From the IMG/VR virus record IMGVR_UViG_3300024274_000264: a stretch of 64,000 nt of DNA; one strand, given 5' to 3'. Positions 15,060-36,833 of this stretch are shown piece after piece. The number at the start of each line of letters is the position of its first letter. Within the stretch, counting starts at the first letter, position 1. This DNA comes from a virus. The notes under the pieces are model-generated. The model did not search any database and was not told the origin of the DNA. It was given only the letters and a program-made list of their open reading frames with translations. The translations under genes and the position numbers were made by a program.

Positions 15060-16910
15060 ATGAGAGAGCCTAAAAAGTATGTGAATCTACATGCACATTC
15101 AAACGGAAGTATTGGCGATGCCATCGGACTTCCCCAGGATCATTTTGATTTTGCCCAAAAAAATGAACTTGGAGCTCACGCAATTACAGATCATGGAAAC
15201 ATGAACACTTTTTCTCACTCTTACAAATACTACGAGGGTCTTAAAAAAGAAGGTAAAGAATTCAAAATTCTTTATGGAATTGAGTCTTATTTTATTCCAT
15301 CCATATCGGAGTGGTCTTCTTTAAAAGAAGAAACTTCAAAAAGAAAAGAAATAGAAAAGCAAAATAAAAAAACAAATAAAGCAAAACCAAAAAAATCAAC
15401 AGATGAGTTTATTATTTTTGATGAAATTGAAGAAAAGCGAAAAGCAGAATTTATAGCAGAAGTTGAAAACTACGAACTTTTAAATAAAGAAGTTGCGCTT
15501 TTGAAAGACGCTGAAGGAAATGTTGAAACAACTGTTGTTGAAAATGAAGAAGAAACTAAATCCAACAAAGTTAGAGATCCTCTTCGTTCAAGAAGTCATT
15601 TAGTATTGCTTGCAAAAAACACAGCAGGTTTACATAGTTTGTTTAAACTAACTTCTCTTTCTTATAAAGAAGGATTTTATTTTTTTCCACGTATGGATTT
15701 CGACTTAATAAAGCAAAATGCTAATGGTAATATAATAGCAAGCAGCGCTTGTTTAGGTGGCGAACCAAATAAAATACTCATAAAACATTTTTTAGATCTT
15801 AACCTAAATGAAGAAGATTACAAGAGTGATGTCGATAAACTAAAAACTTACAAATTCGATCAGATTCAATCTGAACTAAAACTACTTGCCGAGCAATTTA
15901 TATACGTTTTAGGAGGCAATAAAGATAATTTTTTTCTTGAAATACAGTTTAACAAAGTTCCATATCAACATTTGCTGAATTATCATTTAATTGAATTATC
16001 AAAAAGAACTGGAATAAAAGTTATTGCGACCGCAGATTGCCACTATCCAAATCCCGAACACTGGAAAGAAAGAATTATTTATAAAACTCTCGCAAGAATG
16101 ACTGTCGATAAACTTAAAGAAATTGATCCAAATACAATTCCACAAAAAATTGAAGAGTTGGAACATGAGTTATATCCAAAGAATGCCACTCAAATGTGGA
16201 ACGCTTATAAAAACTATTGTGTTAAAGATTATCCTGAAATTTATACCGAAGAATATCATGAAATAGTTTGCGACGCAATTGAACGAACGCATGAAATTGC
16301 TTTTGAAGCAATTGACAAGAAAATAGAATTCGATAAAACTCCAAAACTTCCAAGTCTGAATAAGTTAATATCAGAAAATAAAATTAAAGATTTTAAATCC
16401 GATGGTTTGAATGAAGATGAAATAAGTTTTAACGAGCTCGTCGATTTGGTTATGTCTGGTCTAGAATCAAAAAAGAAAATTGAAGATACAAAATATGTTG
16501 ACCGCGCTCTTGAAGAACTTGACGTTATCAAACATTTAAAACTTGAAAAGTATTTTTTGACTTGTGCCCAAAGTCTTAATTTGATTGGTAAAAAAATGTT
16601 ATTAGGAGCTGGCAGAGGTTGTTTCTTACCAGGAACAAAAATACATATTCCTTCTTCAAAAAGAAAATTGAATATTGAAGAGTTTTCTTCTTCAAAAGAA
16701 GAATGGGTTTATACCCACGATGGCTCAATTCAAAAAGTTTTAAAATGTTGGGATCACGATCTTCAAGACGAAGAGATAGTAGAACTCGAATTTGATGATG
16801 GTACGATAATTTCTTGCACAAAAGATCATAAATTTCTTACGAAAAATCGTGGTTGGGTCGCGGCATCTGACTTAAAAGATGATGATGAATTCGAAAAAGT
16901 ATGTTTTTAA
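15060..16910 (+). CDS. dnaE: DNA polymerase III alpha, piece 1 of 4 (PHP domain; 520-aa extein plus IntN1)
   Basis: LHAHS, AITDHG, HLVLLAKN, ATADCHY, ends GAGRG|CFLPGT... Confidence 0.95.
   Translation: MREPKKYVNLHAHSNGSIGDAIGLPQDHFDFAQKNELGAHAITDHGNMNTFSHSYKYYEGLKKEGKEFKILYGIESYFIPSISEWSSLKEETSKRKEIEKQNKKTNKAKPKKSTDEFIIFDEIEEKRKAEFIAEVENYELLNKEVALLKDAEGNVETTVVENEEETKSNKVRDPLRSRSHLVLLAKNTAGLHSLFKLTSLSYKEGFYFFPRMDFDLIKQNANGNIIASSACLGGEPNKILIKHFLDLNLNEEDYKSDVDKLKTYKFDQIQSELKLLAEQFIYVLGGNKDNFFLEIQFNKVPYQHLLNYHLIELSKRTGIKVIATADCHYPNPEHWKERIIYKTLARMTVDKLKEIDPNTIPQKIEELEHELYPKNATQMWNAYKNYCVKDYPEIYTEEYHEIVCDAIERTHEIAFEAIDKKIEFDKTPKLPSLNKLISENKIKDFKSDGLNEDEISFNELVDLVMSGLESKKKIEDTKYVDRALEELDVIKHLKLEKYFLTCAQSLNLIGKKMLLGAGRGCFLPGTKIHIPSSKRKLNIEEFSSSKEEWVYTHDGSIQKVLKCWDHDLQDEEIVELEFDDGTIISCTKDHKFLTKNRGWVAASDLKDDDEFEKVCF
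16620..16907 (+). mobile_element. split intein N fragment 1 (96 aa)
   Basis: CFLPGTKI block A, CTKDHKFLT block B, GWV.A.DLK.DD then stop. Confidence 0.92.
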
Positions 16911-16932
16911 TTTTTTAAAGTAATATCTATAT

Positions 16933-17280
16933 TTGGGACCAAAAATGATATTCTACCAAATTTTTTGCTCAAACTGTGGAATGTTGTTTTTACCTTCTCA
17001 AGATATTAAATTTGCCGATCGATCGGCAAATGTTTTATGTTGTTCGAAGAATTGTTTAAAAATTCACAATTATAAATATTCTGCTTGGACAACACGTCAA
17101 AAAATAGATTTTAAATCCGCAAGAGATGTTATTACAACTACCATAAAAATAGTTGGTAATATTCCTGAAATTAACGAACTCTTAAAATTATCTTCGTCTC
17201 TAGTAATCGATGAATATTCCAATCAACAATTATTGAAAGAAATAATTGAAATGATAAAAGACAATATAATCCTACTGTAG
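16933..17280 (+). CDS. hypothetical Cys-rich (zinc-finger-like) protein
   Basis: CSNC...CCSKNC. Confidence 0.5.
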   Translation: MGPKMIFYQIFCSNCGMLFLPSQDIKFADRSANVLCCSKNCLKIHNYKYSAWTTRQKIDFKSARDVITTTIKIVGNIPEINELLKLSSSLVIDEYSNQQLLKEIIEMIKDNIILL

Positions 17281-17290
17281 AAAGATAACA

Positions 17291-18148
17291 ATGAATAAAA
17301 AAATAAAAGTGTTCTATAACGATAAACAGAATGTCGCAAACAACATTAGTTTTTCTCCGTCGGCAGGAAAACCAAAACGATTTGTTGAAGAAATAAAAAG
17401 TTTTGATTATGTCGAAATGATTGATAATTTTGAACCATATTCAAGAAATGATTTTTATTTAGGCCATGATCAACAACATGTTGATGCGGTGTTAAATTGC
17501 GAAAAACAAAATGGGTTTGAAAACAAACTTCAAGAAGTAGCAGAATCTCTGCATTGGACAAATGCTTCATTTTATGCTGCGGCAAAATCTGCATTCGAAA
17601 ACAAAACTTTTTCTTGTTCTCCAACATCGGGATTTCACCACGCAACATATAATGAATGTATGGGGTTTTGTACTTTTAATGGGCTTATACTAGCTGCGAT
17701 TAAGCTAAAGCAGCAATACCCAGATATTCTAATTTCAATTATTGATATTGATGCCCATTATGGAAATGGAACGGATGATATAATCAAAAGATTAAATTTA
17801 AAAGATTTTATCCACCACTATACTTTTGGTGGAGTTGTTGATAGTTTTGATAAAAAAACATTATTTTATGATTTCGAAGTGACATTAAAAAATGAAATGA
17901 ATAGATTCACAAAATATTGTGATTTAATTTTGTATCAAGCTGGCGCAGATCCTCACATTGAAGATCCATACGGAGGATATTTTACAACAAAAGAACTGCA
18001 TCAAAGAGACAAGATAGTTTTTGAATTTGCTAAAGAAAACAAAATTCCTGTTGCTTGGAATCTCGCAGGCGGCTATCATAAAAACTTTGATAAAGTATTA
18101 GAGGTTCATTTAAACACATTATCCGAGGCCCACGAATGGATTCTTTAG
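17291..18148 (+). CDS. histone deacetylase (HDAC/AcuC) family protein
   Basis: GFHHA, GFCTFN, DIDAHYGNGT, QAGADPH..DPYG, GGY. Confidence 0.93.
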   Translation: MNKKIKVFYNDKQNVANNISFSPSAGKPKRFVEEIKSFDYVEMIDNFEPYSRNDFYLGHDQQHVDAVLNCEKQNGFENKLQEVAESLHWTNASFYAAAKSAFENKTFSCSPTSGFHHATYNECMGFCTFNGLILAAIKLKQQYPDILISIIDIDAHYGNGTDDIIKRLNLKDFIHHYTFGGVVDSFDKKTLFYDFEVTLKNEMNRFTKYCDLILYQAGADPHIEDPYGGYFTTKELHQRDKIVFEFAKENKIPVAWNLAGGYHKNFDKVLEVHLNTLSEAHEWIL

Positions 18149-18450
18149 AAGCAATTTTAGAGTCTGGTTTGCTTGATGATCTTACAAATTTTCAAGAAGA
18201 AATAGCGATAGCTAAAATTCATGATTTAAATAAATTCTTTGAAGAAAGTAAGTACAAAGTTCCAGAAATGGAATTAGTCAATAGAATATTATTAGTTTTA
18301 ATAGTTGCTTTAGTATCACATAATATTTATTTTGAACTTGATGCGTTAATCAATATTGTCCATTTTGAAAGTTTAAACAGAAAAGAAAAAATTATAAATT
18401 ACGAAGAATTTTGTAAACATATTTTGTCTATAATGGTCCCAAAGAATTGA
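18136..18450 (+). CDS. hypothetical protein
   Basis: ORF in operon. Confidence 0.5.
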   Translation: MDSLEAILESGLLDDLTNFQEEIAIAKIHDLNKFFEESKYKVPEMELVNRILLVLIVALVSHNIYFELDALINIVHFESLNRKEKIINYEEFCKHILSIMVPKN

Positions 18451-18488
18451 AATAAGGATTAGTTATTGTATGAGAGGTATTAAAAATT

Positions 18489-18875
18489 ATGCTCACAAGA
18501 CAACAGATAAAAAGCTGTATAACAAAAGTGGGCAGGGTAACAACCTATACAATGTTTTTTGAAATTATCAAAGATGAAGAAGAAAATGAATGTTTTTTTA
18601 ACATTGTCTCACTAACAGAAGAAGAAATTAAAGAATTAGTTCCTGTAAAAATTATTTCAAAAAGAAAAGTTAAAAGATTTTTTAGTGACATTTATCAAAT
18701 AAATGATATGGGAAAATACAGAGACGAGAAAGAAATTATAGATTTTTATTTTCCAACAATAATGTATGAACATTTCTCAATTAAACAAAAGTTTTTTATT
18801 TTTGCTGAGTGTTATGATTTTCTTGTAAATAAAAAACTATTAAAACCAATACCTACAATAAAAGTAAATATATGA
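18489..18875 (+). CDS. member of ~120-aa 'SPRK...PKIEV' paralogue family
   Basis: ISKRKVK and C-terminal PIPTIKVNI. Confidence 0.6.
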   Translation: MLTRQQIKSCITKVGRVTTYTMFFEIIKDEEENECFFNIVSLTEEEIKELVPVKIISKRKVKRFFSDIYQINDMGKYRDEKEIIDFYFPTIMYEHFSIKQKFFIFAECYDFLVNKKLLKPIPTIKVNI

Positions 18876-19261
18876 AAAAGAAAAATACAGAAATTAAATT
18901 TAGTATTAAAAAAGGTATTAACCCTAACCATTTAATAATTGCTTTTTCTCACTATGATATTTACACAAAAGCTTTTTCTGATGTTAGAATGATATTCGAT
19001 ACATTTGACTTTTTTTTAAAAATACATGAGTTTTTAACTCCTCGAAAAATAAAGTCCTTATACAAGAAAGAACTTGATCGAACTTTAGTTTCATTGAGTT
19101 TTATGGATAATAAAAATTATAAATTCATAGAAATGAAGGGATTACCGTTTGTTGACAAATATTATTGTAAGTGGATCATTACATTTAAGACTTATAGAAA
19201 ATTAAAAAAATATATAGGGAATTTTATTGTTGAGCCTCAAAAAATTATAGTTGGCACTTAA
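18872..19261 (+). CDS. member of 'SPRK...PKIEV' paralogue family
   Basis: LTPRKIKSL and C-terminal EPQKIIV. Confidence 0.65.
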   Translation: MKKKNTEIKFSIKKGINPNHLIIAFSHYDIYTKAFSDVRMIFDTFDFFLKIHEFLTPRKIKSLYKKELDRTLVSLSFMDNKNYKFIEMKGLPFVDKYYCKWIITFKTYRKLKKYIGNFIVEPQKIIVGT

Positions 19262-19289
19262 ATAAAACTAAATTAATATTTATATTCAA

Positions 19290-19580
19290 ATGGATCAAAA
19301 ACCAAAACCGCTGTCAAACGATTTATCACCAAGAAAAATTAGTTCACATAATTTTAAACTTGTTCCTGTAAAAAAATTTAGAATTGTTAATGAGTTTTTT
19401 GAGGCGGTTACAATTGATGGAAAAACTGATCCATTGTTTGATTCGTGGGAAATGGCTGAAAAATCGATCAAAGAATATTTAAGTTTGTCGCAAACAATGC
19501 GGGGTAAATATACTATAATCGTAGTATACATTAATTTGCCTTCTGAGATGAAAAACGAGACCAATGTCGAATCAAAATAA
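19290..19580 (+). CDS. hypothetical protein
   Basis: ORF in operon. Confidence 0.5.
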   Translation: MDQKPKPLSNDLSPRKISSHNFKLVPVKKFRIVNEFFEAVTIDGKTDPLFDSWEMAEKSIKEYLSLSQTMRGKYTIIVVYINLPSEMKNETNVESK

Positions 19581-19917
19581 TGACGGATATAATTTTCTAA
19601 CACTTCAATTAAATTCTAATTTTGCTCCCCTTAAAGGAATTTCTATTGTTAAGATTGATGGTCTTTTAACAAAAAGAAGATTAATTTGCATCTTGCAAAA
19701 TCGACTTAAAAGATTAGCAAAAAATAAAAAAGAAAAAATATATATTGCAACCGAGAAAAGATTTTTAAGGTTTAAAAGAAAAAAAATATATATTGCGTAT
19801 GTAGTTTACGAAAAAAATGAAAGTGTCTTAAAATTTTTTACCAAAAAAATGCTCCAAGATTTAAAAAGAAAAGGGATAAAAGTTATAAATAACAGTATTA
19901 CCGTTATTACTTCCTAG
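19564..19917 (+). CDS. basic hypothetical protein, possible divergent paralogue-family member
   Basis: LLTKRRL at an equivalent position, similar length. Confidence 0.45.
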   Translation: MSNQNNDGYNFLTLQLNSNFAPLKGISIVKIDGLLTKRRLICILQNRLKRLAKNKKEKIYIATEKRFLRFKRKKIYIAYVVYEKNESVLKFFTKKMLQDLKRKGIKVINNSITVITS

Positions 19918-19954
19918 TATTGCTACCGCGAAAACGAGGCGCTACACATGAAGT

Positions 19955-20317
19955 ATGACAAAAAGTTTTCATGAAATAGCTGTGTTGCAAGCAGATTTAC
20001 TTGAGAAAAAAGATCGAGCATATGGCAGTAGTTTTAATAAAACAGCTGATCATTTAAAAATATTGTTTCCCGATGGAATTGTAGATGATCAATACCAACA
20101 CCTAATGTTTATTATAAGAGTGTTAGACAAACTAACAAGAATTGCAAATAGTAGTCTTTTACCACCAGAAGAAGGCTGTTTAGATGCTTATTTGGACATT
20201 AACGGATATTCAATATTAGGAATAAAAAAAATTCTAGATTCGAAAATTGAACCAGAACAAAAAAATGAAGTAATCGAGGAAATGGTAATAGAACATGAAA
20301 CAAACAATCCTGCATGA
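19955..20317 (+). CDS. nucleotide-modification-associated (Nmad1/DUF1599-like) protein
   Basis: KKDRAYGSSF, IRVLDKLTRI, YLDINGYSIL. Confidence 0.75.
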   Translation: MTKSFHEIAVLQADLLEKKDRAYGSSFNKTADHLKILFPDGIVDDQYQHLMFIIRVLDKLTRIANSSLLPPEEGCLDAYLDINGYSILGIKKILDSKIEPEQKNEVIEEMVIEHETNNPA

Positions 20318-20528
20318 CGAAACAATTGGAGAAAAACAAGAACTTGTGATAAGAGCGAGAACGCTTTTATTAAGCGACGAATTTGGCAATGCAAGACAAA
20401 GATATTCAGAAATATATTTTGTTTATGTTGGAAAAGATAAAATGGATTCTGTTGGGCTAACATCAGCAGAACTAGGATTAATTGTAGAAAGATACAAACA
20501 GTATTTGTTTAAGTATAAAGAAGAGTGA
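20295..20528 (+). CDS. hypothetical protein
   Basis: ORF overlapping the previous gene. Confidence 0.45.
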   Translation: MKQTILHDETIGEKQELVIRARTLLLSDEFGNARQRYSEIYFVYVGKDKMDSVGLTSAELGLIVERYKQYLFKYKEE

Positions 20529-20550
20529 AAACTGGCATAACGATTGCCTC

Positions 20551-20578
20551 TTGACCGCTGCGCCGCGGTGCTTAGAAT
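20551..20578 (+). promoter_or_regulatory. sigma70-type promoter with GC-rich spacer
   Basis: TTGACC-N16(GCTGCGCCGCGGTGCT)-TAGAAT upstream of 20605. Confidence 0.65.
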
Positions 20579-20604
20579 GGTCGACCTAGAAAGACAGACA
20601 ACAC

Positions 20605-20979
20605 ATGAGAAAATCAACTACCAAAACTACAAAAAAATCAACTCGTAAACCAACTTCTTCGCGAAAGGTTACAAAAACATCGCGAACAACTGGTACAACA
20701 AATTCAACGTCGCGGAAACCAGCGGCAAAACGAACTGCTCGGTTGAGCAGCTCGACAATGATCTTTAATTTTAAAGATTCTTCATTTGTTACTGGTTTTC
20801 GTTGGGTTGCAAACTCAACTGATTCAACAACTGGAAACTTAACTGTTTCCATGAAAGATGGTTCTCGATATCTGTATCGGAATGTTTCGAAACAGATTCC
20901 TCAAAATTGGCGTCGACGCCAATCAGCGGGCAGTTTCTTTGTGAAATACATCAAAGAGATGAAATCGGAACGAGTTTAA
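20605..20979 (+). CDS. KTSC-like domain protein with K/R/S/T-rich histone-like N-terminal tail
   Basis: MRKSTTKTTKKSTRK...; SSFV...LTVSMKDGSRYLYRNV...SAGSFFVKYIK. Confidence 0.75.
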   Translation: MRKSTTKTTKKSTRKPTSSRKVTKTSRTTGTTNSTSRKPAAKRTARLSSSTMIFNFKDSSFVTGFRWVANSTDSTTGNLTVSMKDGSRYLYRNVSKQIPQNWRRRQSAGSFFVKYIKEMKSERV

Positions 20980-21018
20980 TTTTAGTTTCTTAAAAAAAAC
21001 CAAAAAAACTCTTAGTTG

Positions 21019-21057
21019 AATGCCTCGTGGATATAAATCTGCGGGGCATTTTCTTTT
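21019..21057 (+). terminator. intrinsic terminator
   Basis: AATGCCTCGTGGAT-ataa-ATCTGCGGGGCATT hairpin (with G-U pairs) plus T tract. Confidence 0.8.
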
Positions 21058-21058
21058 A

Positions 21059-21086
21059 TTGACAACTAATATTTTGGTTTTATCTT
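21059..21086 (+). promoter_or_regulatory. sigma70-type promoter
   Basis: TTGACA-N16-TATCTT directly after the terminator, before 21093. Confidence 0.55.
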
Positions 21087-21092
21087 TGGCTG

Positions 21093-21506
21093 ATGGAACG
21101 TATTTTCATTACTTGCTTTCCATCTATTGAGAAATATTCATTTCATTTCATTAAAGACCAAACAGAAGTTGGTTTTTTATCTATTATTGTACCAACAGAA
21201 GTGAGTCTGAATAGACTTAAACAGATAGAAAAAAGGCAAACTTATATTAGATGGTGGAAAGAAAATGTGTTTAATAAACCCTATGTAGATTATTCTTTTA
21301 TTGAAAAAGAATTTCGCGGCAAAGGCTATGGAAAAAAACTTTATAAAAGTGCCGCGATCTGGCTTAAAATTAAATTTAGTTTAAAACTTTGGGCTTCTCA
21401 AAATCAATCAAAAGAAGCAAAACGCCTATGGAACTCATTATTAAATAATAATGATTCTTTATTTATCACGGATGGCGATTCTTTAGAATTTTTAGGATTT
21501 AAATAA
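21093..21506 (+). CDS. GNAT-family acetyltransferase
   Basis: IEKEFRGKGYGKKLY acetyl-CoA motif, QS..AKRLW. Confidence 0.75.
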   Translation: MERIFITCFPSIEKYSFHFIKDQTEVGFLSIIVPTEVSLNRLKQIEKRQTYIRWWKENVFNKPYVDYSFIEKEFRGKGYGKKLYKSAAIWLKIKFSLKLWASQNQSKEAKRLWNSLLNNNDSLFITDGDSLEFLGFK

Positions 21507-21863
21507 ATGAATAGAGATAAAACTGAAATACATGTTTTTATTCGCGCTTGTTGCGATAAGGTCGCGTTCGAAATTCATAAAATAAATTTGACTATTCCTT
21601 TCTATAGTCCTTATGTGTGGACATATAAAGTAAATGCTATACTCTCCCCAAGAAAAATTAATTCGATGTTTAAATTTAAACCAAATTTTTCATTATATCA
21701 AATATTAATTCCCTACAGTACAACTAACGTGATAAATGAAGCCGTTTCTCTTTCCAATTCGTCAGAAGTGTTTATCAAAACATATGATTTATTTACTTAT
21801 TTAAATTTCGTAAAACCTAAAAATTTCTATCCGCTCCCGAAAATTGAGATTCAACTAAAATGA
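21507..21863 (+). CDS. member of 'SPRK...PKIEV' paralogue family
   Basis: ILSPRKINSM; PLPKIEIQLK. Confidence 0.7.
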   Translation: MNRDKTEIHVFIRACCDKVAFEIHKINLTIPFYSPYVWTYKVNAILSPRKINSMFKFKPNFSLYQILIPYSTTNVINEAVSLSNSSEVFIKTYDLFTYLNFVKPKNFYPLPKIEIQLK

Positions 21864-22231
21864 ATAGCATAGAATTTTGGCAAACAGCAACATGTAAAGG
21901 TATTAAAGAATATGTTAAGTTTGAGAGGCGAATAGATGAATTTAAAGATCATTATTCGAGCGTATTTTGTAAAAATGACTGTCTTTCAGTTGTTAAAATT
22001 TTAACTCCAAGAAAATGGAAACAAAAAACAAAATCTTTTGCATGTCAAAGCATGTATGAAATAATGTTATTTTCAAAATTAGATAAACATATTATAACAT
22101 TTAATCGACCATTTTTAGAAAAGCAATTTTCCCATCTTTTTATTGATCAAGTTAATCTTAATCGAATTAAAAAAGTATTAAACATATTACACACTTTTGA
22201 ACCTCAAAAAATTGAGGTAAATCTGAAATGA
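21860..22231 (+). CDS. member of 'SPRK...PKIEV' paralogue family
   Basis: ILTPRKWK; EPQKIEVNLK. Confidence 0.7.
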   Translation: MNSIEFWQTATCKGIKEYVKFERRIDEFKDHYSSVFCKNDCLSVVKILTPRKWKQKTKSFACQSMYEIMLFSKLDKHIITFNRPFLEKQFSHLFIDQVNLNRIKKVLNILHTFEPQKIEVNLK

Positions 22232-22614
22232 GAAAAAAAGAAAAACCGAGAATCAATTTTTTCAGATTTAGATCGAATATACTTTCATTTATCCAAAGTT
22301 CTGATATTTTAGATTTTTATGAGTTTAAAACATCAATTATTATTCTTAATAGAATTCTTTCTTCTCGTAAAATAAAAGCTTTGTTTTCGATAAAAATTAA
22401 TATGCCTTTATTCGAAGTCGTTATTTTCGATTCCACTTTTGAAGATTTACAGAACGATTTAAAAGTTTACTTGAGCAATAAAACCTATTATGGAAATTGT
22501 ATTTCAATTGATAATCGCCTTTATTTAGATATTCAAAACTTGAAAAAACTTTTAAATTGGGCAAACCCATCTAATATTATTCAACCTCAAAAAATTGAGG
22601 TAAATCTTAAATGA
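22200..22614 (+). repeat. 32-bp direct repeat (1 mismatch) at gene junctions 22200-22231 and 22583-22614
   Basis: AACCTCAAAAAATTGAGGTAAATCT(G/T)AAATGA. Confidence 0.85.
22228..22614 (+). CDS. member of 'SPRK...PKIEV' paralogue family
   Basis: ILSSRKIKAL; QPQKIEVNLK. Confidence 0.7.
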   Translation: MRKKEKPRINFFRFRSNILSFIQSSDILDFYEFKTSIIILNRILSSRKIKALFSIKINMPLFEVVIFDSTFEDLQNDLKVYLSNKTYYGNCISIDNRLYLDIQNLKKLLNWANPSNIIQPQKIEVNLK

Positions 22615-23341: not shown

Positions 23342-23356
23342 GATAATAACTATAAT

Positions 23357-23611
23357 ATGTCAATGATCGAATTCCTAACAACAGATAAACTCGATGTAGA
23401 ATCGAGTAAACTACTAACAAAAATTGAATATAATCAACTTTATCACCAATTAACAATTTGGTTTAAAACAACAGGAGTAGCATATACATATAAAGGAGTC
23501 CCAGAAGAAACTTGGGAAGAATTAAAAAAAGCAGAGAGTAAAGGAAAATACTTTCATTCTTACATTAAAAACTTATACAAGTATGAAAAAATTGTCGATC
23601 GAAAAGATTAA
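23357..23611 (+). CDS. KTSC domain protein
   Basis: VESS..IEY...L.I.FK..G..YTYKGVP...AESKGKYFHSYIK. Confidence 0.9.
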   Translation: MSMIEFLTTDKLDVESSKLLTKIEYNQLYHQLTIWFKTTGVAYTYKGVPEETWEELKKAESKGKYFHSYIKNLYKYEKIVDRKD

Positions 23612-28447: not shown

Positions 28448-28481
28448 AACAATATTTCATTGTATCAATAATAATTTTGCT

Positions 28482-29504
28482 ATGTCCAAAAAATTAACAG
28501 ATGAAGAAAAAGTTCAAAAAATCATAAAAAATAAAAATATTAACGTCAAAGAAGTCATTAATTGTTATAGAGATTTGGAATACAGTTTACCCAAATTAAA
28601 GAAACAGTTTAATTTGGGTTTTAAAGAAAGTGTTTTGATATTAAAACAGAATAATATAAAGATTAGATCAATTTCAGAAAGTAGAAAAACAAATACGTTT
28701 AAAAAAGAAAATAAGGAAAATCTATTAGAAAAATATGGTGTGTCGAATGTAAGTAGTCTTGATTCTGTTAAAGAAAAAAAGAGAAAAACTTCTTTAAAAA
28801 ATTACGGAGTAGATAATATTTGGAAAACAAAAGATTATGGAATTAAAGCACAAGCTTCTAAAGAAAAGAAATATGGAATAAAAGCTATTCCTAACTTATA
28901 CGGAAAAGCAAATTATTTCGGATGGAAAAGTTCTACAGAAGAAGAAAAAAAGAAAAGGCTTCAAAATTTATGGTCAGAAAGTATTTTATCTTGGAATTCT
29001 TTAACAGAAGAACAAAAAACTAAAATAATTCAAAAACGTTCGAGAAAAATTGTTTCTTGTTATAATTCTTCGCTTGAACGTAAAATAAAAAATTCTTTAC
29101 AGAAATTAAATATACTATATAGCGAACAATTTTGGATAAACCGAAAAAGTTATGATTTTCATATTAAGATTTTTAATGTAAATTATGTATTAGAAATTAA
29201 TGGAGATTATTGGCATGCTAATCCTCTTTACTATAAGGAAAATGATTTTATTAACTATCCATTAGGTTTAATTAAAGTTAAAGAAATTTGGGATAAAGAT
29301 TTAATAAAAAAACAAAATGCGGAAAAATATGGTTATAAAACATTATATATTTGGGAAAGCGAATTGAAAAATAAATCTGAAATTGAAATTGAAAATCTAA
29401 TAAAAGAAAAACTTAAATTAAATAAAATCTCGTACAGTGCTCAAAATGAAAAATGTGAAAATTTTAAACATAAAAAAATAAAATTCATATCAAAAAAAAC
29501 ATAA
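28482..29504 (+). mobile_element. free-standing Vsr-like (putative homing) endonuclease
   Basis: EKYGV repeats, YDF, LEINGDYWHANP, IWESE. Confidence 0.8.
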
Positions 29505-29522
29505 TATGGAAATTGGTAAAAA

Positions 29523-30023
29523 TTGTTTCTGGTTATAAGCAATTACATACATGCACGTTCGCTAGATAGTTTAGAAAATCATCCATCAAGAACAAGAATT
29601 AAAGCTTTTCATTCCACAATAAAAAATGATTTACCAAAGGGTTGGAGATTTTGTTTCGAAAATGTTTTCGCAAAGCATAGTATTCATTATAAAAGTTTAA
29701 AAGACTACCATTACCTTCTTTCCGTTTGGAATGAATACAACACTTGTCTTTCTTGGGATGAAACTAAAGAATGGGCAGACTTGTTAGAAGTACCAACACC
29801 AGAAATTCTTTATAGAGGAATTTATAACGAAAAAATTTTGAAAGATCTTTATCGGCCCATTTCTAATAATGGAGATGAGTGTGAAGGTTATGTTATTCGA
29901 CCTACAGATTCCTTTCCTTATAGAGATTTTAGAAGATTTAATTTAAAGTTCGTAAGAGAAAATCATGTTCAAACTTCTGAGCATTGGAAGCAATCTAAAA
30001 TAATAGAGAATGAAATAAAGTGA
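29523..30023 (+). pseudogene. RNA ligase C-terminal fragment
   Basis: YIHARSLD, ENVFAKHSIHY, CLSWDET, EGYVIR, KFVRENHVQT..HW. Confidence 0.75.
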
Positions 30024-30427
30024 ATAATAAAATGAATAATATAATAATATTATGTAACGACGAGAAACCTCCTGAAAACTATACGGGAAAAATTAAATGG
30101 GAAACAGGTATGATTGAAATCCGTTTAAATGGAAAAGTTCATAATGTAAGTGGGCCAGTACAGGTTTATGACGAAGAAGGATTTAGACCATTAAAAGTTT
30201 TTTGGATAGATGATGTCAACTATTCTTTTAAATTGGAATATGTATTTCCAAAAAATAAAAATATGATTTTTCTTGGAAAAGAAAAAGGCAGATATGATCT
30301 TGAATGGTTAAAGTTTTTAACAGAAAATGGCTTAGAAGAATTCCCATTGATTCCAGAAATGGGAAAAGATGAAAAAATTTCTCGTTTTATTTCTAACTTT
30401 ACTAATCTAAAAGGAGAAAAAGAATAA
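30020..30427 (+). CDS. short paralogue of 25924..26559
   Basis: Shared GKEKG.Y.LEWLKFLTE.....FP..PEM. Confidence 0.7.
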   Translation: MNNKMNNIIILCNDEKPPENYTGKIKWETGMIEIRLNGKVHNVSGPVQVYDEEGFRPLKVFWIDDVNYSFKLEYVFPKNKNMIFLGKEKGRYDLEWLKFLTENGLEEFPLIPEMGKDEKISRFISNFTNLKGEKE

Positions 30428-30428
30428 A

Positions 30429-31268
30429 ATGCTTGCAAAAGCAGATATCTACTATAAACAAAATTTATATAAACTAATAACGAAAGGTAATAAAGATGAA
30501 AATCCAAGACCGAAATATAAAGATGGAACTCCTGCGAATAGTTTGTTTGTAACACAAGTGTTTGAAGAATATGATATAGAAAATGGTGAATTGCCATTTA
30601 CAACACTTAGAAACACAGCAGTTAAATCAGGAATAAAAGAAATTTTTTGGATTTATCAACTTCAATCTTCCAAACTAGAAGATACAAAAAAACTTGGGAT
30701 TAATTGGTGGAATGAATGGGAAATTGGAAATGGAACAATTGGTCAAAGATATGGGGCAACAGTTAGAAAATGGGATTTAATGAATAAACTTTTGCATGGA
30801 TTAAAACAAAATCCATTCGGAAGAAGACATATCCTTAACCTATATCAAGAATCTGATCTTCTTGAAACTGAAGGTTTGTATCCTTGTGCATTTGAAACAA
30901 TTTGGTCTGTCCGAAAAGACTTAACCTCTAAAAACTATATACTTGACATGACTCTTATTCAAAGAAGTTCAGATTATATTATGGCCAACTGGATTAACAA
31001 GGCACAGTATTATGCTTTACAGTTAATGGTTGCCTCGGATCTTGGTTACAAACCAGGCAAATTCTGCCACTATGTTCATAATCTTCATATTTACGATAGG
31101 CATTTAAATGCGGCAAACGAAATCATAAAAAGAGAATCGTTACAAGAACAGCCAAATTTTACTTTAAAACAAAGCAAAAGTTTTTACGAGTTTAATATCG
31201 ATGATTTTGAATTCGCCAATTTTGATAAACCGCAAAAAATCAATTCTGAACTAGAGATAGCAATATGA
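30429..31268 (+). CDS. thyA: thymidylate synthase
   Basis: YG, GRRHI, LYPCAF, QRSSD, HIYDRH. Confidence 0.93.
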   Translation: MLAKADIYYKQNLYKLITKGNKDENPRPKYKDGTPANSLFVTQVFEEYDIENGELPFTTLRNTAVKSGIKEIFWIYQLQSSKLEDTKKLGINWWNEWEIGNGTIGQRYGATVRKWDLMNKLLHGLKQNPFGRRHILNLYQESDLLETEGLYPCAFETIWSVRKDLTSKNYILDMTLIQRSSDYIMANWINKAQYYALQLMVASDLGYKPGKFCHYVHNLHIYDRHLNAANEIIKRESLQEQPNFTLKQSKSFYEFNIDDFEFANFDKPQKINSELEIAI

Positions 31269-31642
31269 TAAACTACGACAAAACAAAAGAAGAGCTTCTT
31301 TCTATATTAAAAGATCCTTCATTTAAATCAAAGTTTGAAGAAGTCAAAAAGAAAATAGAACAAGAGATATTGGGAAACAAAAAACTTTTAGTAACTAACG
31401 TTTTTGAAAAATATAAACTAAGTTACCACTTAGATCCAAACTATAATAGCGGATTAATGCTTTATGGTTTATACACACTGTTAACTGAAAAAGGTATTCA
31501 GGAAAGAGTTTTGGGAGTTTCCTGTAGAGAATATTTAAAATTTGTTTCAAATAAAAACCCTATTATGATCGAGACAAAACCTTTTCAAGAGGATGAGTTT
31601 CCTTCAGAAATGAAAGTTGAAAACTTCGGAGATTGGATGTAA
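31265..31642 (+). CDS. hypothetical protein
   Basis: Coupled ORF. Confidence 0.5.
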   Translation: MINYDKTKEELLSILKDPSFKSKFEEVKKKIEQEILGNKKLLVTNVFEKYKLSYHLDPNYNSGLMLYGLYTLLTEKGIQERVLGVSCREYLKFVSNKNPIMIETKPFQEDEFPSEMKVENFGDWM

Positions 31643-32034
31643 AAATGGAAAATGATATAAAACAAGTTCTTGTGTGGAGAAAAGACTTAAATGTTAGAAA
31701 AGGTAAAATAGCTGCCCAACTTGCCCACGCAAGTATAAAATGGCTAACTCAAAGGATTAGAAACAGTCCTGAAAAAAAAGCTATTGATCTTTTAGATGAA
31801 GAAGAAATTTCCTGGATCGATGGCAATTTTAAAAAAGTTGCCGTTTATGTCGAAACAGAAAAAGAATTGATAGAATTGTATCAAGCAGCAAAAGAGACGG
31901 GGTTGACCGTAAATTTAATAACCGACGCGGGATTAACTGAGTTTCATGGACAGCCAACTAAAACATGCTTAGCTATAGGACCACACTCTAGCGAGAAGAT
32001 TGATCCGCTGACTAGAGAGCTAAAACTGTTATGA
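31633..32034 (+). CDS. pth2: peptidyl-tRNA hydrolase, Pth2 type
   Basis: KQVLV.RKDL...KGKIAAQLAHAS, DAGLTEF, TCLAIGP, LKLL. Confidence 0.92.
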   Translation: MDVKMENDIKQVLVWRKDLNVRKGKIAAQLAHASIKWLTQRIRNSPEKKAIDLLDEEEISWIDGNFKKVAVYVETEKELIELYQAAKETGLTVNLITDAGLTEFHGQPTKTCLAIGPHSSEKIDPLTRELKLL

Positions 32035-32489
32035 AATATAATATAAAACTCATTTGTGAAAAACTCAATGTGACGCACCCACAACATGATAAAATAATGG
32101 AACGTGTGTCCGAACTGAAAGCAGATGTTGAAAGTTTATTTAAAGATCAGGAATATCTGGATTTCCACTTAAAAAACAGAAACGAAGAAGCGACAGAAAA
32201 ATCAGCTTTTATCTTTTTAAGACATTTGCCAAAGTATACACTCTCATTAAGTTTTCAAAACCATGAGTTTTACATTGCTGAATATGGAGAATATTTGTCT
32301 GAAACAAAGATTGAAATAATGATAGCTAATGTTTTTAACATTAAGGAATATATCTTTAAAAAAATTCCAAATTATTTGAAATATAGAACTGGTGCATTTT
32401 CTCTTGACCTTATAGATTATGAATTTCCGATAACAGCTTTGCCAAAAATTCATATCAAAATAAATGAACAATGGAATGGCCTCTGGTAA
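32031..32489 (+). CDS. hypothetical protein
   Basis: Coupled ORF; C-terminal LPKIHI resembles the paralogue-family tail. Confidence 0.5.
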   Translation: MKYNIKLICEKLNVTHPQHDKIMERVSELKADVESLFKDQEYLDFHLKNRNEEATEKSAFIFLRHLPKYTLSLSFQNHEFYIAEYGEYLSETKIEIMIANVFNIKEYIFKKIPNYLKYRTGAFSLDLIDYEFPITALPKIHIKINEQWNGLW

Positions 32490-33874
32490 ACATAATGAAA
32501 CTAAAATCAAAAACATATAGAAAATATACTGGAAAGGTTTATGACCTTTCTGTTGAGAATAAAAGTTCGTATAACGTCGAGGGTTTTCCTGTGCATAATT
32601 CTGGTGCGGGATCTTTAGTTTGTTACCTTTTAGGAATTACCCAGGTTGATCCAATTAAACATGGACTTTTGTTTGAAAGGTTTTTAAGTAAAAAGAAAGC
32701 ATGTCTCGGAGAAGATTCTTGGGTCTTGACCTATACGGGTCCTAAACAATTAAAAAATATTAAAATCGGAGACCGAATTAAAACTCATACAGGAAAATAT
32801 TTTCCTACCGTGGCAATTGATCTAACAAAAGATCGTACAGACTGGTATGAAATTACGTATGGTTATTGGCTAAATCATACCAGTCTTGGTTTGAAAGGTT
32901 TTCATAGACCATTTTATAGCGTTGGAAAATTGATAGCTAGTTCAAATCATAAATTTATTACAGCTCAACAATTTAATTGTCCACATATACAAAAAATTCC
33001 TTTAGATGTAAAATATAAAGATGTATCTGTTGAATTTATAAAATCAGTAGTAGATAATAGTTTTACAAAAACTCAGCCAAGATTTTATGGGAATGGATCT
33101 GATAATAAAACTTGGGAAATTTTTTCTATCGAAAAAGGTAAAGTCCCATTAACTTTAATTGATATTAAATTGGAAGCCGACCATACATTTTGGGTTTCAG
33201 ATAAAAAAGATGGCGTGTATGTTTTATCCCACAATTCCTTACCTGACATTGATAGCGATTGTGCAGACAGAGAAGAGGCAATTAAAATTCTTATCGAGCA
33301 TTTTGGAGAAGAATGCGTATTACCTGTTTCAAACTATAACCAACTTCAACTTAAATCCTTAATTAAAGATTTGGCTAGGTTATACCAAATTCCATTTGAA
33401 GAAATCAATCCAATTACTCAAAAAATTGAAAAAGAAACACTTGACGAAGATAAGAAACAAGATGGTTTCGATCGAGGTGTTTGGTTTCTTTCTTATGAAA
33501 GTGCCGAGAAAAACTCTCCAACTTTTAACAAACTATTGGAAGATTATCCACAACTTGAAGCGAGCATAAAAGTATTATTCAAACAAATAAAATCATGTTT
33601 TACGGAGGACACATTACTGTTGACTAACAGCGGTTGGAAAAAATACTCTGAAATTACAGAGCAAGACAAGATAGCATTTATTGACAACGTTGGAGAAATT
33701 CAATATAGTTCAGACTTTTTTAAAGTCGAAAATGGAGAAAAAGAAGTTTACAAAATTGAAACTTTAGATGGAAAGGTTTTGGAACTAACTGAAGACCATT
33801 TAGTTCAAACCGATAAAGGTTGGAAACAGGTAAAAGATTTAACAAATGAGGATTCTCTAATCGGATGGATATAA
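32471..33874 (+). CDS. dnaE: DNA polymerase III alpha, piece 2 of 4 (IntC1-extein-cis intein-extein-IntN2; likely start ATG 32495)
   Basis: VHN|SGAGSLVCYLLGIT.VDP...FERFL; catalytic SLPDIDSD; ends KS|CFTED... Confidence 0.95.
   Translation: MEWPLVNIMKLKSKTYRKYTGKVYDLSVENKSSYNVEGFPVHNSGAGSLVCYLLGITQVDPIKHGLLFERFLSKKKACLGEDSWVLTYTGPKQLKNIKIGDRIKTHTGKYFPTVAIDLTKDRTDWYEITYGYWLNHTSLGLKGFHRPFYSVGKLIASSNHKFITAQQFNCPHIQKIPLDVKYKDVSVEFIKSVVDNSFTKTQPRFYGNGSDNKTWEIFSIEKGKVPLTLIDIKLEADHTFWVSDKKDGVYVLSHNSLPDIDSDCADREEAIKILIEHFGEECVLPVSNYNQLQLKSLIKDLARLYQIPFEEINPITQKIEKETLDEDKKQDGFDRGVWFLSYESAEKNSPTFNKLLEDYPQLEASIKVLFKQIKSCFTEDTLLLTNSGWKKYSEITEQDKIAFIDNVGEIQYSSDFFKVENGEKEVYKIETLDGKVLELTEDHLVQTDKGWKQVKDLTNEDSLIGWI
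32495..32599 (+). mobile_element. split intein C fragment 1 (35 aa)
   Basis: KVYDLSVE...YNVEGFPVHN followed by Ser +1. Confidence 0.92.
32702..33235 (+). mobile_element. contiguous mini-intein (178 aa, no endonuclease) in dnaE
   Basis: CLGEDSWV..., SSNHKF block B, DIKLEADHTFW...LSHN|S. Confidence 0.9.
33596..33871 (+). mobile_element. split intein N fragment 2 (92 aa)
   Basis: CFTEDTLLLT.SGWK, LTEDHLV, GWKQVKDL then stop. Confidence 0.92.
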
Positions 33875-34320
33875 AGCAATTTTTTTCTGAAGACTATGAA
33901 AAAGTAACTTTAGAAAAGTCTCAAGCTGTTTTTGAATTGTTTTATAGTTTGGTTGATCAGTTAAAAACTAGAAAAATTATACATTCGGAAAAATTGATAT
34001 TGCTTGAAGAATTAGATGTATTTGCTATTAGTTGTCAAGATATGTCTATTGAATTTTTACGCAAATGTAAGTTCTTATCCGAAAAAGAGATTCAAGAGAT
34101 GTTTGTTACTATTTATACAATTAGCGATGAAAAAGTTCTTACCCCACACGATACTTGGATTTGGATTAATAATATCCAACTAACAAATAAATTTAAACCA
34201 CAATTTTCTTTAGGTATAAATTATGATGGAATTGAACTCTATTCTTATCTTTTGGAAATAGAAAATCAAAAAATAATAGGTCTCAAGTTGGAGCGAGAAT
34301 TCGGCGATGAAACAGAATAA
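33865..34320 (+). CDS. hypothetical protein inserted between dnaE pieces 2 and 3
   Basis: Overlaps both flanking dnaE ORFs; no nuclease motif recognised. Confidence 0.6.
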   Translation: MDIKQFFSEDYEKVTLEKSQAVFELFYSLVDQLKTRKIIHSEKLILLEELDVFAISCQDMSIEFLRKCKFLSEKEIQEMFVTIYTISDEKVLTPHDTWIWINNIQLTNKFKPQFSLGINYDGIELYSYLLEIENQKIIGLKLEREFGDETE

Positions 34321-34441
34321 AATAATCTCAATTCAAAAAATTGGTAAGAAACCTGTCTTTGATATTCACCACAATATTCCAACAGGTGCTTTTATTGACG
34401 ATCAGCCTAATATAGTGACCGAAGCTGGATTAATTTCAAAT
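34307..34441 (+). mobile_element. split intein C fragment 2 (45 aa, ends SN)
   Basis: KIISIQKIGKKPVFDI...GLISN followed by Cys +1. Confidence 0.88.
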
Positions 34442-35533
34442 TGCGGTCGCCACGCTGGCGGCGTTGTCCTCACTGACTCGCCGATCGAAAACCAGAATAT
34501 GCCTCTGATTATTGGCGGCAAGGGTGAGAAAAGATCGCTCCAAACACCTTGGACAGAAGGTGTAAACTTCAGAATGCTAGAACATTTTGGATTTCTTAAG
34601 TTTGACTTTTTGGCACTTGGAACACTCCGTATTTTTGAAAACACGGTAAGAAAAATATTAAAAAAACAAACAGGAAGACAAGAATCCGAAATACCATTTG
34701 AAGAAGTTCAAAAATGGTTTAATGATCATTTGTCACCAGACAATAATCCAATGGATGATCTTAAAGTTTATGAAAACGTGTTTTGGAATGGAAATTTTAT
34801 TTCGATTTTCCAGTTCGTAAAACCAAACACACAAGATTTTATGAAAAGGATGAAGCCTAGATCGGTCAAAGATATTGCGATTGCGACTTCAATACACCGC
34901 CCAGGCCCACTAGGATTAAAAGTAGATAGAGACTTTTTAGCGAATAGAGCAAACCCAGATTTGATTAAATATGAACATCCATTCTTAAAAGAAGTTTTAG
35001 AACCAACAAGCGGACTCTTAATTTTTCAAGAACAGTTACAGTTAATTTATCATCATTTATGTGGAGTTCCTCTCGACGAAACAGATTCCGTTCGTAAAGC
35101 ATTTACAAAGAAAGAAATCAACAACAAGGAAAAAGCGGCAAAAGAACGTGAGAAGTTAAAAGCTGAGTTTGTAGAAAAAACAAAAACCTTTGCAGGTCTT
35201 GAAGAACAAAAGGCATCAAAGTTTTTTGATAAAATGGAAAAATTGGTTGCGTATTCGTTTAACCAATGTTTGCATGGAGATTCACTTGTAGAAACTCAAA
35301 ACGGATTTAAGAAAATTAAAGAGGTTATACCAAACCAAGATTTAGTCAATAGTGTCAATGGATTTGTAAAAGTAAAAAATAAGTTTGAAAATGGTGTGAA
35401 AAATTTGGTTAAAATTAAAACGAAGTCTGGTAAAGAATTAGTCTGTACGTTAGATCATAAAATTCAAACACCTAATGGCATGAAAACTGTTAAAGAAATA
35501 ATAGAGCAAAAGCTTCAAATTATAGTAAAATAA
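34307..35533 (+). CDS. dnaE: DNA polymerase III alpha, piece 3 of 4 (IntC2-extein-IntN3)
   Basis: ISN|CGRHAGGVV, KFDFLAL, IFQF, RPGP, IFQEQ, AYSFNQ|CLHGD. Confidence 0.95.
   Translation: MKQNKIISIQKIGKKPVFDIHHNIPTGAFIDDQPNIVTEAGLISNCGRHAGGVVLTDSPIENQNMPLIIGGKGEKRSLQTPWTEGVNFRMLEHFGFLKFDFLALGTLRIFENTVRKILKKQTGRQESEIPFEEVQKWFNDHLSPDNNPMDDLKVYENVFWNGNFISIFQFVKPNTQDFMKRMKPRSVKDIAIATSIHRPGPLGLKVDRDFLANRANPDLIKYEHPFLKEVLEPTSGLLIFQEQLQLIYHHLCGVPLDETDSVRKAFTKKEINNKEKAAKEREKLKAEFVEKTKTFAGLEEQKASKFFDKMEKLVAYSFNQCLHGDSLVETQNGFKKIKEVIPNQDLVNSVNGFVKVKNKFENGVKNLVKIKTKSGKELVCTLDHKIQTPNGMKTVKEIIEQKLQIIVK
35267..35530 (+). mobile_element. split intein N fragment 3 (88 aa, basic)
   Basis: CLHGDSLVET.NG, CTLDHKI block B, then stop. 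Confidence 0.92.
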
Positions 35534-35553
35534 TTGTATCTGGTTTTAGTCAA

Positions 35554-35691
35554 ATGCAAAAATGTATGATCTGTAATCAAGAATTTAAGGTTATAAGATG
35601 GAAAATATTACGAATTTGGGAAAGCGAGATTAATTCTGATTTTGATTCGGTTCTCAAAAAAATAGAAGCTTTTGTAAAGGAAAAAAAATAA
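35554..35691 (+). pseudogene. 45-codon remnant of a Vsr-like endonuclease between dnaE pieces 3 and 4
   Basis: MQKCMICNQEFKVIRWKILRIWESEI...; WESE tail matches the endonucleases at 6545 and 28482; TAATG overlap with piece 4. Confidence 0.7.
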
Positions 35692-35801
35692 TGCTAGACG
35701 AGATCGATTCTGTTGAGTTTTATGGTATTGAAGAAACTTATGATTTGGAAGTGGATCATGAAGACCATACTTTTTATGCTAATGATATTTCTGTTTCTAA
35801 T
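35691..35801 (+). mobile_element. split intein C fragment 3 (37 aa, strongly acidic, ends SN)
   Basis: MLDEIDSVEFYGIEETYDLEVDHEDHTFYANDISVSN followed by Ser +1. Confidence 0.92.
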
Positions 35802-36833
35802 AGCCACGCAATTTCTTATTCAATAGCTACTTTTCAATGCAGCTATCTTTTAACATATCATCCAGATGAATGGATAACAGCTTGTTTAGATTATGCCGCT
35901 CTTGAAAAGGGTAAAGTTGTTGGTCAAGAAGATCCCAAAGCTGTTGCAATGAGAGAGGCACAAAAACTTGGCTATAAATTCTCAAAACCAGATATTAACT
36001 TCTCAAGTGCGGGATATGAAATGCATCCATTTAAAGAAAAAACAATAATTCCAGGATTGACAACAATTGATGGAATTGGAGAAGCAGCGCTCGAAGAAAT
36101 TAACAGAAATAAACCTTATAAAGATATAAAAGACTTATTAATAAAAGAAGATGGTTCTTGGAAACATTCTAAATTTAATCGTAAAGGATTAACAAATCTT
36201 ATTTGCTTAGAGGCCCTCGATAGTTTAAATCTTGTTTCGCCAACTGGTGAATTATCAAATTACAAACAAGCGTTTAATGTTATTGTCGAAAATTTTGATT
36301 TATTAAAGAAAACTTCAGCAAAGAAGAAAAATAATAACATTCAACCAATTTTAGATGAACTAATAAAAAAAGAACAAGAATTAAAAACAGAAGATTGGTC
36401 AAGAGCAGAAAAAACTAAATATTGGCTCGAACTTGCAGGTAGCGCAGACTTAAGTTTAATTCTTGATCCAAAATATTTTGAAGCAATAAAAGAGATGAAT
36501 CTTATAAGCGTTGATGAGATTAGAGAAATCGATTTTCTTGAAGAAGGAGAAAAGAAAAAGATCACAGAACAAGTTTGGTTTATTTTAAGAAAAGCAATAT
36601 TAAAAACAACAAAAACAGGAAAAATTTACGCCGAACTCTCTGTAATTGGAGAAAAGTTTTCAGACTTAACAGTAAAAGTTTGGGACATAAGTCCAACAGA
36701 AAACTTCGAAGCGTACCCAGTGTACGAGGTTTATTGCGGATCAATTACAAAAGACAAATATGGACTATCAACCAAACTAGATAAAATTGCTTCTTTGTCA
36801 GAAATTTATGATTATCTTTTTTCTGGCAATTGA
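35691..36833 (+). CDS. dnaE: DNA polymerase III alpha, piece 4 of 4 (IntC3 plus C-terminal extein)
   Basis: TYDLEV...FYANDISVSN|SHAISYS, PDINFS, GL..IDGIG (HhH), C-terminal OB-like region. Confidence 0.93.
   Translation: MLDEIDSVEFYGIEETYDLEVDHEDHTFYANDISVSNSHAISYSIATFQCSYLLTYHPDEWITACLDYAALEKGKVVGQEDPKAVAMREAQKLGYKFSKPDINFSSAGYEMHPFKEKTIIPGLTTIDGIGEAALEEINRNKPYKDIKDLLIKEDGSWKHSKFNRKGLTNLICLEALDSLNLVSPTGELSNYKQAFNVIVENFDLLKKTSAKKKNNNIQPILDELIKKEQELKTEDWSRAEKTKYWLELAGSADLSLILDPKYFEAIKEMNLISVDEIREIDFLEEGEKKKITEQVWFILRKAILKTTKTGKIYAELSVIGEKFSDLTVKVWDISPTENFEAYPVYEVYCGSITKDKYGLSTKLDKIASLSEIYDYLFSGN

Follow-up and report, generated by a model that had tools for sequence, protein, structure and literature searches.

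The window analysed in this study is a stretch of 64,000 nucleotides of viral DNA, corresponding to the minus strand of positions 197141-261140 of the IMG/VR record IMGVR_UViG_3300024274_000264. It carries the dnaE gene of a phage in pieces, and we consider it quite probable, judging from the sequence, that the replicative DnaE polymerase (C-family, DNA polymerase III (Pol III) alpha-like) is built from four separately translated proteins joined by split inteins. The four open reading frames (ORFs), termed pieces 1 to 4, lie on the + strand at 15060-16910, 32471-33874, 34307-35533 and 35691-36833. Piece 1 ends in the N-terminal half of intein a (IntN a), piece 2 contains the C-terminal half of this intein (IntC a), a contiguous (cis) mini-intein b and IntN d, piece 3 runs from IntC d to IntN e, and piece 4 starts with IntC e.

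Results

Domain content and in silico joining of the four pieces

The NCBIfam DnaE model NF004226 (1146 positions) was tiled in order by the four ORFs, with piece 1 covering positions 4-365, piece 2 positions 364-394 and 400-468, piece 3 positions 505-751 and piece 4 positions 751-1010. Pfam matches were PHP and the start of DNA_pol3_alpha in piece 1, two stretches of DNA_pol3_alpha in piece 2, the end of DNA_pol3_alpha and DNA_pol3_finger (2.9e-30) in piece 3, and HHH_6 in piece 4. The pieces carry the domains of DnaE and Pol III alpha in order (PHP, palm with three catalytic Asp, fingers, helix-hairpin-helix), and the curated whole-protein cut-off was not reached by any single piece, as expected of fragments.

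Extein 1 (520 amino acids (aa), 15060-16619) contains the PHP domain and the start of the palm, ends in GAGRG and is followed by IntN a (96 aa and stop, 16620-16910). Piece 2 continues after IntC a (35 aa, 32495-32599) with extein 2a (34 aa, 32600-32701, SGAGS...SKKKA), which was aligned to residues 417-458 of Thermus aquaticus (Taq) alpha and 359-396 of Escherichia coli alpha. Then follow mini-intein b (178 aa, 32702-33235, from CLGED to LSHN), extein 2b (120 aa, 33236-33595, from SLPDIDSD to IKS), aligned to Taq alpha 460-525, and IntN d (92 aa and stop, 33596-33874). Piece 3 starts with IntC d (45 aa, 34307-34441), and its extein 3 (275 aa, 34442-35266) holds the remaining palm and the fingers, was aligned to E. 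coli alpha 503-759 and ends in SFNQ ahead of IntN e (88 aa and stop, 35267-35533). Piece 4 consists of IntC e (37 aa, 35691-35801) and extein 4 (343 aa and stop, 35802-36833), which starts with SHAISYS and carries the helix-hairpin-helix and C-terminal domains. These ORFs and their intein layout had been described in an earlier note on this DNA, and all were found in place with one start corrected. The ORF of piece 2 does open at the ATG at 32471, as the note had it, whereas relatives begin at the second ATG at 32495, which gives the IntC a of 35 aa used here.

The exteins were cut at the boundaries of the earlier note and joined by a script, and the total came to exactly the 1292 aa claimed there (520+34+120+275+343). 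The product was compared with 13 intact DnaE proteins of 1221-1273 aa, which came from large phage-like contigs found with piece 3. Identity to these was 45-51% over at least 1212 residues, and no sequence of the alignment had a gap at junction a, b, d or e. The junction motifs (the slash marks the junction) read GAGRG/SGAGS at a, KKKA/SLPDIDSD at b, IKS/CGRHAGG at d and SFNQ/SHA at e, as previously claimed. In E. coli alpha, site a falls between Gly363 and Ser364 (GRG/SGAGS), site d between Asn507 and Ala508, ahead of GKHAGG, and site e between Lys758 and Ser759, after FNK, while site b lies immediately ahead of the catalytic PDxD motif. The catalytic Asp residues are split over two genes, two of the three being in extein 2b (PDIDSD) and the third in extein 3 (KFDFL); this earlier observation was borne out by alignments to the E. 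coli and Taq alpha subunits. The extein frames contained zero frameshifts and zero internal stops.

The source record is 390,884 bp long with direct terminal repeats and a CheckV completeness of 100%. A search of this complete genome with NF004226 matched only the four-ORF stretches, so that neither a second dnaE nor the intact copy elsewhere, which the earlier note had named as evidence that would speak against its proposal, was found. A family-B polymerase was likewise not found in the complete genome.

Intein residues, docking and selection

Intein N-terminal and C-terminal models matched at the predicted ends of the pieces. TIGR01445 (intein_Nterm) matched IntN a, d and e with 26.4, 28.7 and 32.7 bits, and TIGR01443 (intein_Cterm) matched IntC a and IntC e with 24.8 and 20.5 bits; intein b had a weak match to Pfam Hint_2. 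In PDB, IntN d matched the Spl DnaX mini-intein and IntN e the gp41-1 intein, and the window inteins matched cyanobacterial intein structures weakly (E about 1e-4). All four inteins begin with Cys1 (block A). Block B reads TKDH in a, TEDH in d and TLDH in e, and SSNH, a conservative variant, in b; block G reads VHN/S in a, SHN/S in b, ISN/C in d, where IntC ends in LISN, and VSN/S in e. In relatives, Cys1 and the TxxH motif of IntN a were invariant among 4 genomes and the His-Asn-Ser of IntC a among 5 genomes, the ISN/CGRHAGG junction of d recurred in dozens of protein clusters, and the e allele of relatives has Ser1.

The residue after each intein was compared with the intact homologues. The +1 position was changed from Gly to Ser at b and from Ile, Val or Leu to Cys at d, in both cases to the nucleophile that an active intein requires; alleles of site d without an intein read ...S-[TIV]-G-[RK]-HAGG.

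Docking was modelled for pair a. The complex of IntN a and IntC a scored 0.62 against 0.01 for the best control, its contacts agreed by at least 85% between runs, and the partner had a predicted local distance difference test (pLDDT) value of 68. Of 80 solved complexes, 58 attained the docking mark used, as did 2 of 110 mismatched pairs. Solved structures exist for split-intein complexes, and the docking pass of pair a may reflect only its likeness to solved split inteins.

The three split inteins shared 20-37% identity among their IntN and 22-23% among their IntC. Net charges of IntN and IntC were -8 and +3 for a, -10 and +1 for d, and +7 and -12 for e, the IntC of which is without Lys or Arg; the inverted polarity of pair e was kept in the relative G002. 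A set whose members would not cross-react is in line with the low identity between the pairs and with the charge inversion of pair e.

Selection was estimated on four genomes. dN/dS (nonsynonymous to synonymous substitution rates) was 0.07-0.19 for the intein halves of a and d (about 0.19 for IntN a and 0.16 for IntN d) and 0.02-0.17 for the exteins, with dN far below dS throughout, and these values are rough, since dS was saturated (>1). They point to purifying selection on the halves of split inteins a and d, like that on the exteins.

Allelic states of the insertion sites in relatives

The near relatives were the IMG/VR contigs G001, G002 and G003 (loci L006, L007 and L008, respectively) and the Joint Genome Institute (JGI) contigs L012 and L013, with a piece 3 identity of 64-91%. 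The breakpoints of the window recurred among related genomes as split, contiguous or empty alleles. In the window, site a is split with the halves 15.6 kb apart, b is contiguous, c (PDID/SD) is empty, and d and e are split, with a 45-aa ORF in the gap of e. L012 otherwise has the window layout, with c empty and d and e split, the C-half of a present and its N-half beyond the contig, and with b empty (KKG-LPDIDSD); exactly the stretch of intein b is absent there. In G001, a and d are split, b is split with a 311-aa nuclease gene between its halves, c is contiguous, and e is empty, so that pieces 3 and 4 form one protein of 671 aa. G003 also has a and d split, b split with the nuclease gene and c contiguous, and its e is split with an endonuclease-like ORF. 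In G002, a and d are split, b is empty, c is cut by one in-frame stop, and e is split with a 330-aa endonuclease-like ORF between the halves. Five pieces are present in both G002 and G003.

The window intein b shares homology with the split-intein halves that L006 and L008 carry at site b, and a more distant relative, P0091, carries at site e a contiguous 141-aa intein which is 75% and 68% identical to the window IntN e and IntC e, respectively. The stops were retained in at least 6 assemblies from different samples. Since empty, contiguous and split alleles occupy identical positions, these are true inteins with the boundaries given above, and the stops are not assembly errors; the allelic states are the strongest evidence on both the reality of the inteins and their boundaries.

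At site c of G002 (L007, 8171-9559), the stop was seen to fall after block F, and an 18-aa IntC with its own ATG lies 27 nt downstream. Either the intein is naturally split and its C-half is extremely short, or this allele is dead.

The relatives retrieved with piece 3 comprised 85 of fragment size and 237 longer ones. Roughly classified by their overhangs, they included 88 full-length proteins (83 without insertions), 62 pieces of the IntC-extein-C-terminus form and 27 middle pieces overhanging at both ends. Extra break or insertion sites lie near residues 214, 221, 303 and about 833 of the spliced product (P0100, P0107, P0132, P0058-P0061, P0082, P0172 and P0182), and the DnaE family has at least 7 or 8 intein sites. 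Three-piece layouts were present in the more distant contigs L015, with an ORF in each gap, and L014, whose third piece was not seen within the locus. These layouts together with the piece counts show that multi-piece dnaE is recurrent in a clade of large uncultured phages.

Weighing of the alternatives

Several points weigh against the joining of the four proteins by splicing. In intein b, block B is SxxH instead of TxxH, a PDB sequence search found no match at E up to 1, and the fold model was poor (pLDDT 43, on a 5-row alignment). Pairs a and d have equal charge polarity and could cross-react as far as their sequences go, and cyclisation of piece 2 (IntC a-extein-IntN d) may be one form of such cross-reaction. 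Sequences resembling Shine-Dalgarno sites are weak ahead of pieces 2 and 3, and the saturation of dS limits what can be drawn from the selection values. In addition, a 342-aa ORF at 3613-4641 has a sub-threshold match to family-A DNA polymerase (25 bits vs a cut-off of 34.3, model positions 206-343), and DnaE may not be the sole polymerase activity of the phage.

The same atypical block B and lack of a confident fold model in intein b would fit with a non-covalent assembly at one or more junctions, in which the intein halves act as non-splicing docking modules of a multi-subunit polymerase. We regard this as unlikely, because no intein has lost a nucleophile or its terminal Asn, and these residues are also conserved in relatives of 60-90% identity. 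A module that served for docking alone could dispense with one or another of Cys1, TxxH, Asn and the +1 nucleophile. The +1 residues at b and d differ from those of intact homologues and are what an active intein requires.

The four ORFs could also be what is left of a dnaE that selfish elements have broken up and that is decaying without function, the host polymerase or another enzyme being used in its place. This reading would suit a genome in which inteins (about 9 N-terminal matches) and endonuclease genes abound, with a fractured RecA, a broken RNA ligase region and the small family-A polymerase-like ORF. Such decay is very improbable in the face of exteins free of frameshifts and internal stops, of dN far below dS in exteins and intein halves alike among four genomes with saturated synonymous sites, of the same piece structure in relatives down to about 48% identity, and of 27 clusters of middle pieces that are intact in metagenomes. 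The idea that the breaks are not real or do not persist up to translation (through assembly or sequencing errors, group I introns, or recoding to contiguous inteins) can draw on the many small group I introns reported in essential genes of related huge phages (PMC12880540) and on the single in-frame stop that interrupts one intein in L007, and it is very improbable given that Rfam returned no intron or ribozyme match in 14000-38000 at E up to 1, that about 30 genes lie within the 15.6 kb between the halves of intein a, that each IntC has its own ATG, that the IntN stops are kept in independent assemblies of different samples, and that the e gap holds a protein-coding remnant and not a structured RNA match.

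The gaps between the intein halves

A free-standing gene for a putative endonuclease lies between the halves at b and e in relatives; in the window, the corresponding places hold a probable 45-aa remnant at e, an ORF without nuclease signature at d and 15.6 kb of other genes at a. In the site b gap of relatives, the 311-aa ORF had endonuclease matches in PHROGs and a weak match to Pfam Phage_endo_I, and the 330-aa ORF in the site e gap of L007 and L008 had a weak match to DUF559.

The gap at e in the window is 157 bp, and its 45-aa ORF (35554-35691, + strand) has a stop which overlaps the ATG of piece 4. The CxxC start and ILRIWESEI-like end of this ORF resemble the Vsr-like endonucleases of the RecA locus and of L007, a weak likeness with E 0.006 in a four-sequence set, and it is probably what remains of a collapsed gene for a Vsr-like homing endonuclease.

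The homing-endonuclease slot at d is occupied by P0005, a 151-aa ORF (33865-34320, + strand) which overlaps both neighbouring ORFs. An ORF fills this slot in all relatives, with an identity to P0005 of 21-75% and a good alignment in some only, and among 1.8 billion proteins there were 3 representatives only. The model of P0005 was confident (pLDDT 86) and showed an N-terminal helix and a seven-stranded sheet. P0005 matched no Pfam or PHROG family. As for the fold, all look-alikes in the atlas were below the level of chance hits, Foldseek against PDB gave nothing at E up to 0.001, and the best Z of a wide search with VIA-align was 5.3, within the background. A function of P0005 as endonuclease was not supported by these family and fold searches. 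The ORF at 32031-32489, ahead of IntC a, was considered as a homologue of P0005 and was also unsupported (BLASTP, E 0.16).

Between the halves of intein a lie about 30 unrelated genes on the + strand (16911-32494), among them genes for histone-deacetylase-like, S8 subtilase, dihydrofolate reductase (DHFR), HNH and thymidylate synthase proteins and RNA-ligase fragments. The halves are separated by 10.9-14.2 kb in relatives, with a similar separation by genes. Within this interval, the S8 subtilase gene (23667-25391) lies in a 2-kb stretch of about 41% guanine plus cytosine (GC), as against 30% for the genome, and a gene of similar length occupies the matching position in relatives; it may be a foreign acquisition. 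A 340-aa ORF is flanked by an HNH endonuclease ORF (27899-28447) and by the C-part of an RNA ligase (29523-30023, Pfam positions 23-171 of 171), and the region 27899-30023 looks like another gene broken by a mobile nuclease. The Rfam search of 14000-38000 for introns and ribozymes (E up to 1) returned three small-RNA matches at chance level, none near the breaks.

Genome surroundings

The genome has about 30% GC, and one strand carries nearly all genes. Replication and recombination genes neighbour the dnaE pieces and encode a PD-(D/E)XK nuclease, a gp32-like protein and RecA. The ORF at 3613-4641 described above could encode a second, small polymerase-like protein. A scan for promoters and terminators in 31500-37500 gave counts not above those of shuffles. 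No close relative was present in the GenBank phage collection, where the best match to piece 3 was about 30% identical.

Inteins are unusually abundant in this genome, with about 9 N-terminal and 7 C-terminal model matches across 391 kb, and several of these inteins are contiguous, in frames of 515-900 aa. The recA gene is also fractured (5767-8431), with Pfam RecA positions 6-199 and 200-262 in two ORFs. The first ORF reads GDA and then a 17-aa IntN starting with Cys; the second has a Vsr-like nuclease fused to a long IntC ending in HN/TTT, followed by the RecA C-part. The RecA intein is atypically split, with a very short N-half.

Discussion

Four-part ligation by three trans-splicing events had been proposed for this DnaE in the earlier note, and every prediction of that model at the sequence level held, including the junctions, the catalytic residues, selection, the alleles and the single copy. 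We infer that splicing would occur at all four junctions, and that the three pairs would not cross-react. After translation, the cognate halves would dock into the HINT fold, and class-1 trans-splicing would take place at a, d and e through an acyl shift at Cys1, attack by Ser or Cys at +1, and cyclisation of the terminal Asn, while intein b would excise itself in cis. The end product would be one chain of 1292 aa, in which the active-site Asp residues from pieces 2 and 3 are united. The arrangement probably originated from homing endonuclease genes that repeatedly invaded intein genes, as in the gene-breaking model (PMC2677866).

The three split inteins, four in relatives, may well be a naturally co-evolved and mutually orthogonal set by which four or five gene products are put together, in a set sequence, into one polypeptide, with the charge inversion of pair e as one device against mispairing; we lean towards this reading. 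To our knowledge, natural protein trans-splicing is a two-piece event. If the reading of a co-evolved set is correct, it would be the first natural case, in a complete genome, of protein trans-splicing across several junctions. If this essential replicative enzyme depends on three trans and one cis ligation for its function, several split inteins would work side by side on one substrate in the cell without scrambling, a property sought by protein engineers. The dnaE family would offer ready-made candidate orthogonal sets, including a pair of inverted charge, and the allelic series at five sites is a rare natural record of the passage from contiguous to split to uncoupled inteins, able to test the gene-breaking model of 2009. 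There is also a warning for annotators, as a complete polymerase can go unnoticed in the genome of a huge phage when it lies in pieces which each fall below family cut-offs.

Fractured genes were defined by Dassa, London, Stoddard, Schueler-Furman and Pietrokovski in 2009 from short ocean and lake metagenome assemblies (PMC2677866). Their loci DnaE-1, DnaE-2 and DnaE-3 were each interrupted at a different point, and one of them had an additional intein C-part; a stepwise gene-breaking model was proposed with them (PMC2677866). In the layout that the relatives also have at sites b and e, the fractured genes combine a phage-like replication gene and a split intein on the same strand with a stand-alone gene for a GIY-YIG or Vsr-like endonuclease that separates the halves, and their IntN of 88-105 aa and IntC of 33-54 aa compare with 88-96 and 35-45 aa in the window (PMC2677866). 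The published loci are short fragments with the gene in two, whereas here three split inteins and one contiguous intein would act on one protein in a complete 391-kb genome, with relatives that have four split. The window differs from the fractured genes also in its gaps, since pair a is uncoupled by 15.6 kb, the e gap retains only a probable endonuclease remnant, and the d gap holds a small protein of no recognised nuclease family. The dnaE family described here shows all steps of the gene-breaking model, namely empty sites, contiguous inteins, splits with an endonuclease, splits with a decayed endonuclease, and uncoupled halves (PMC2677866). A 2026 paper on gut jumbo phages mentions, without detail, frequent splitting of DNA polymerase genes by genes for endonucleases (PMC12880540).

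The view of the earlier note that this architecture had not been described in nature needs to be narrowed, because fractured phage DnaE with split inteins at several sites has been published (PMC2677866); no printed account was found of a single gene, in a complete genome, that holds several split inteins. A paper on several split inteins acting on one natural protein in a complete genome was not found in the literature searched, and absence there is no proof. The difference from the known fractured genes lies in how many split inteins would have to act on a single protein, here in a complete genome.

Compared with cyanobacterial DnaE, IntC e ends in Ser-Asn, as does that of Npu DnaE, and the cyanobacterial break presumably lies before CFNKSH in the Ssp sequence, four residues upstream of site e (SFNQ/SHA). 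The cyanobacterial split DnaE intein (Ssp, Npu; Wu, Hu and Liu 1998, cited through PMC2677866) shares with the window inteins the host enzyme, the class-1 type, Cys1 and the terminal Asn. The phage-like DnaE sites of Dassa et al. differ from the cyanobacterial one (PMC2677866). Cyanobacterial DnaE halves are encoded at separate loci without an endonuclease between, as is pair a here; they have one split per gene, and sites a, b and d of the window lie elsewhere, in the palm.

Trichodesmium DnaE reportedly has two cis inteins and one split intein. An all-cis relative of the window DnaE, P0099 (1988 aa), carries its contiguous inteins at, or close to, sites a, b/c and e. In such contiguous multi-intein DnaE proteins (Trichodesmium, P0099), at most one intein is split and at most two polypeptides have to be joined. 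The inteins of multi-intein DnaE cluster in conserved palm and finger motifs (PMC4760082).

In engineered ligation of several fragments (Pinto et al. 2020, PMC7090010; tandem trans-splicing of three segments, PMC12707363), the middle fragments are of the form IntC-extein-IntN, as found in the window, and mutually orthogonal split-intein pairs are needed against cyclisation or skipping. Engineered sets are assembled from inteins of unrelated sources, whereas the inteins of the window are found together in nature and would have evolved jointly, within a single cell and on a single substrate.

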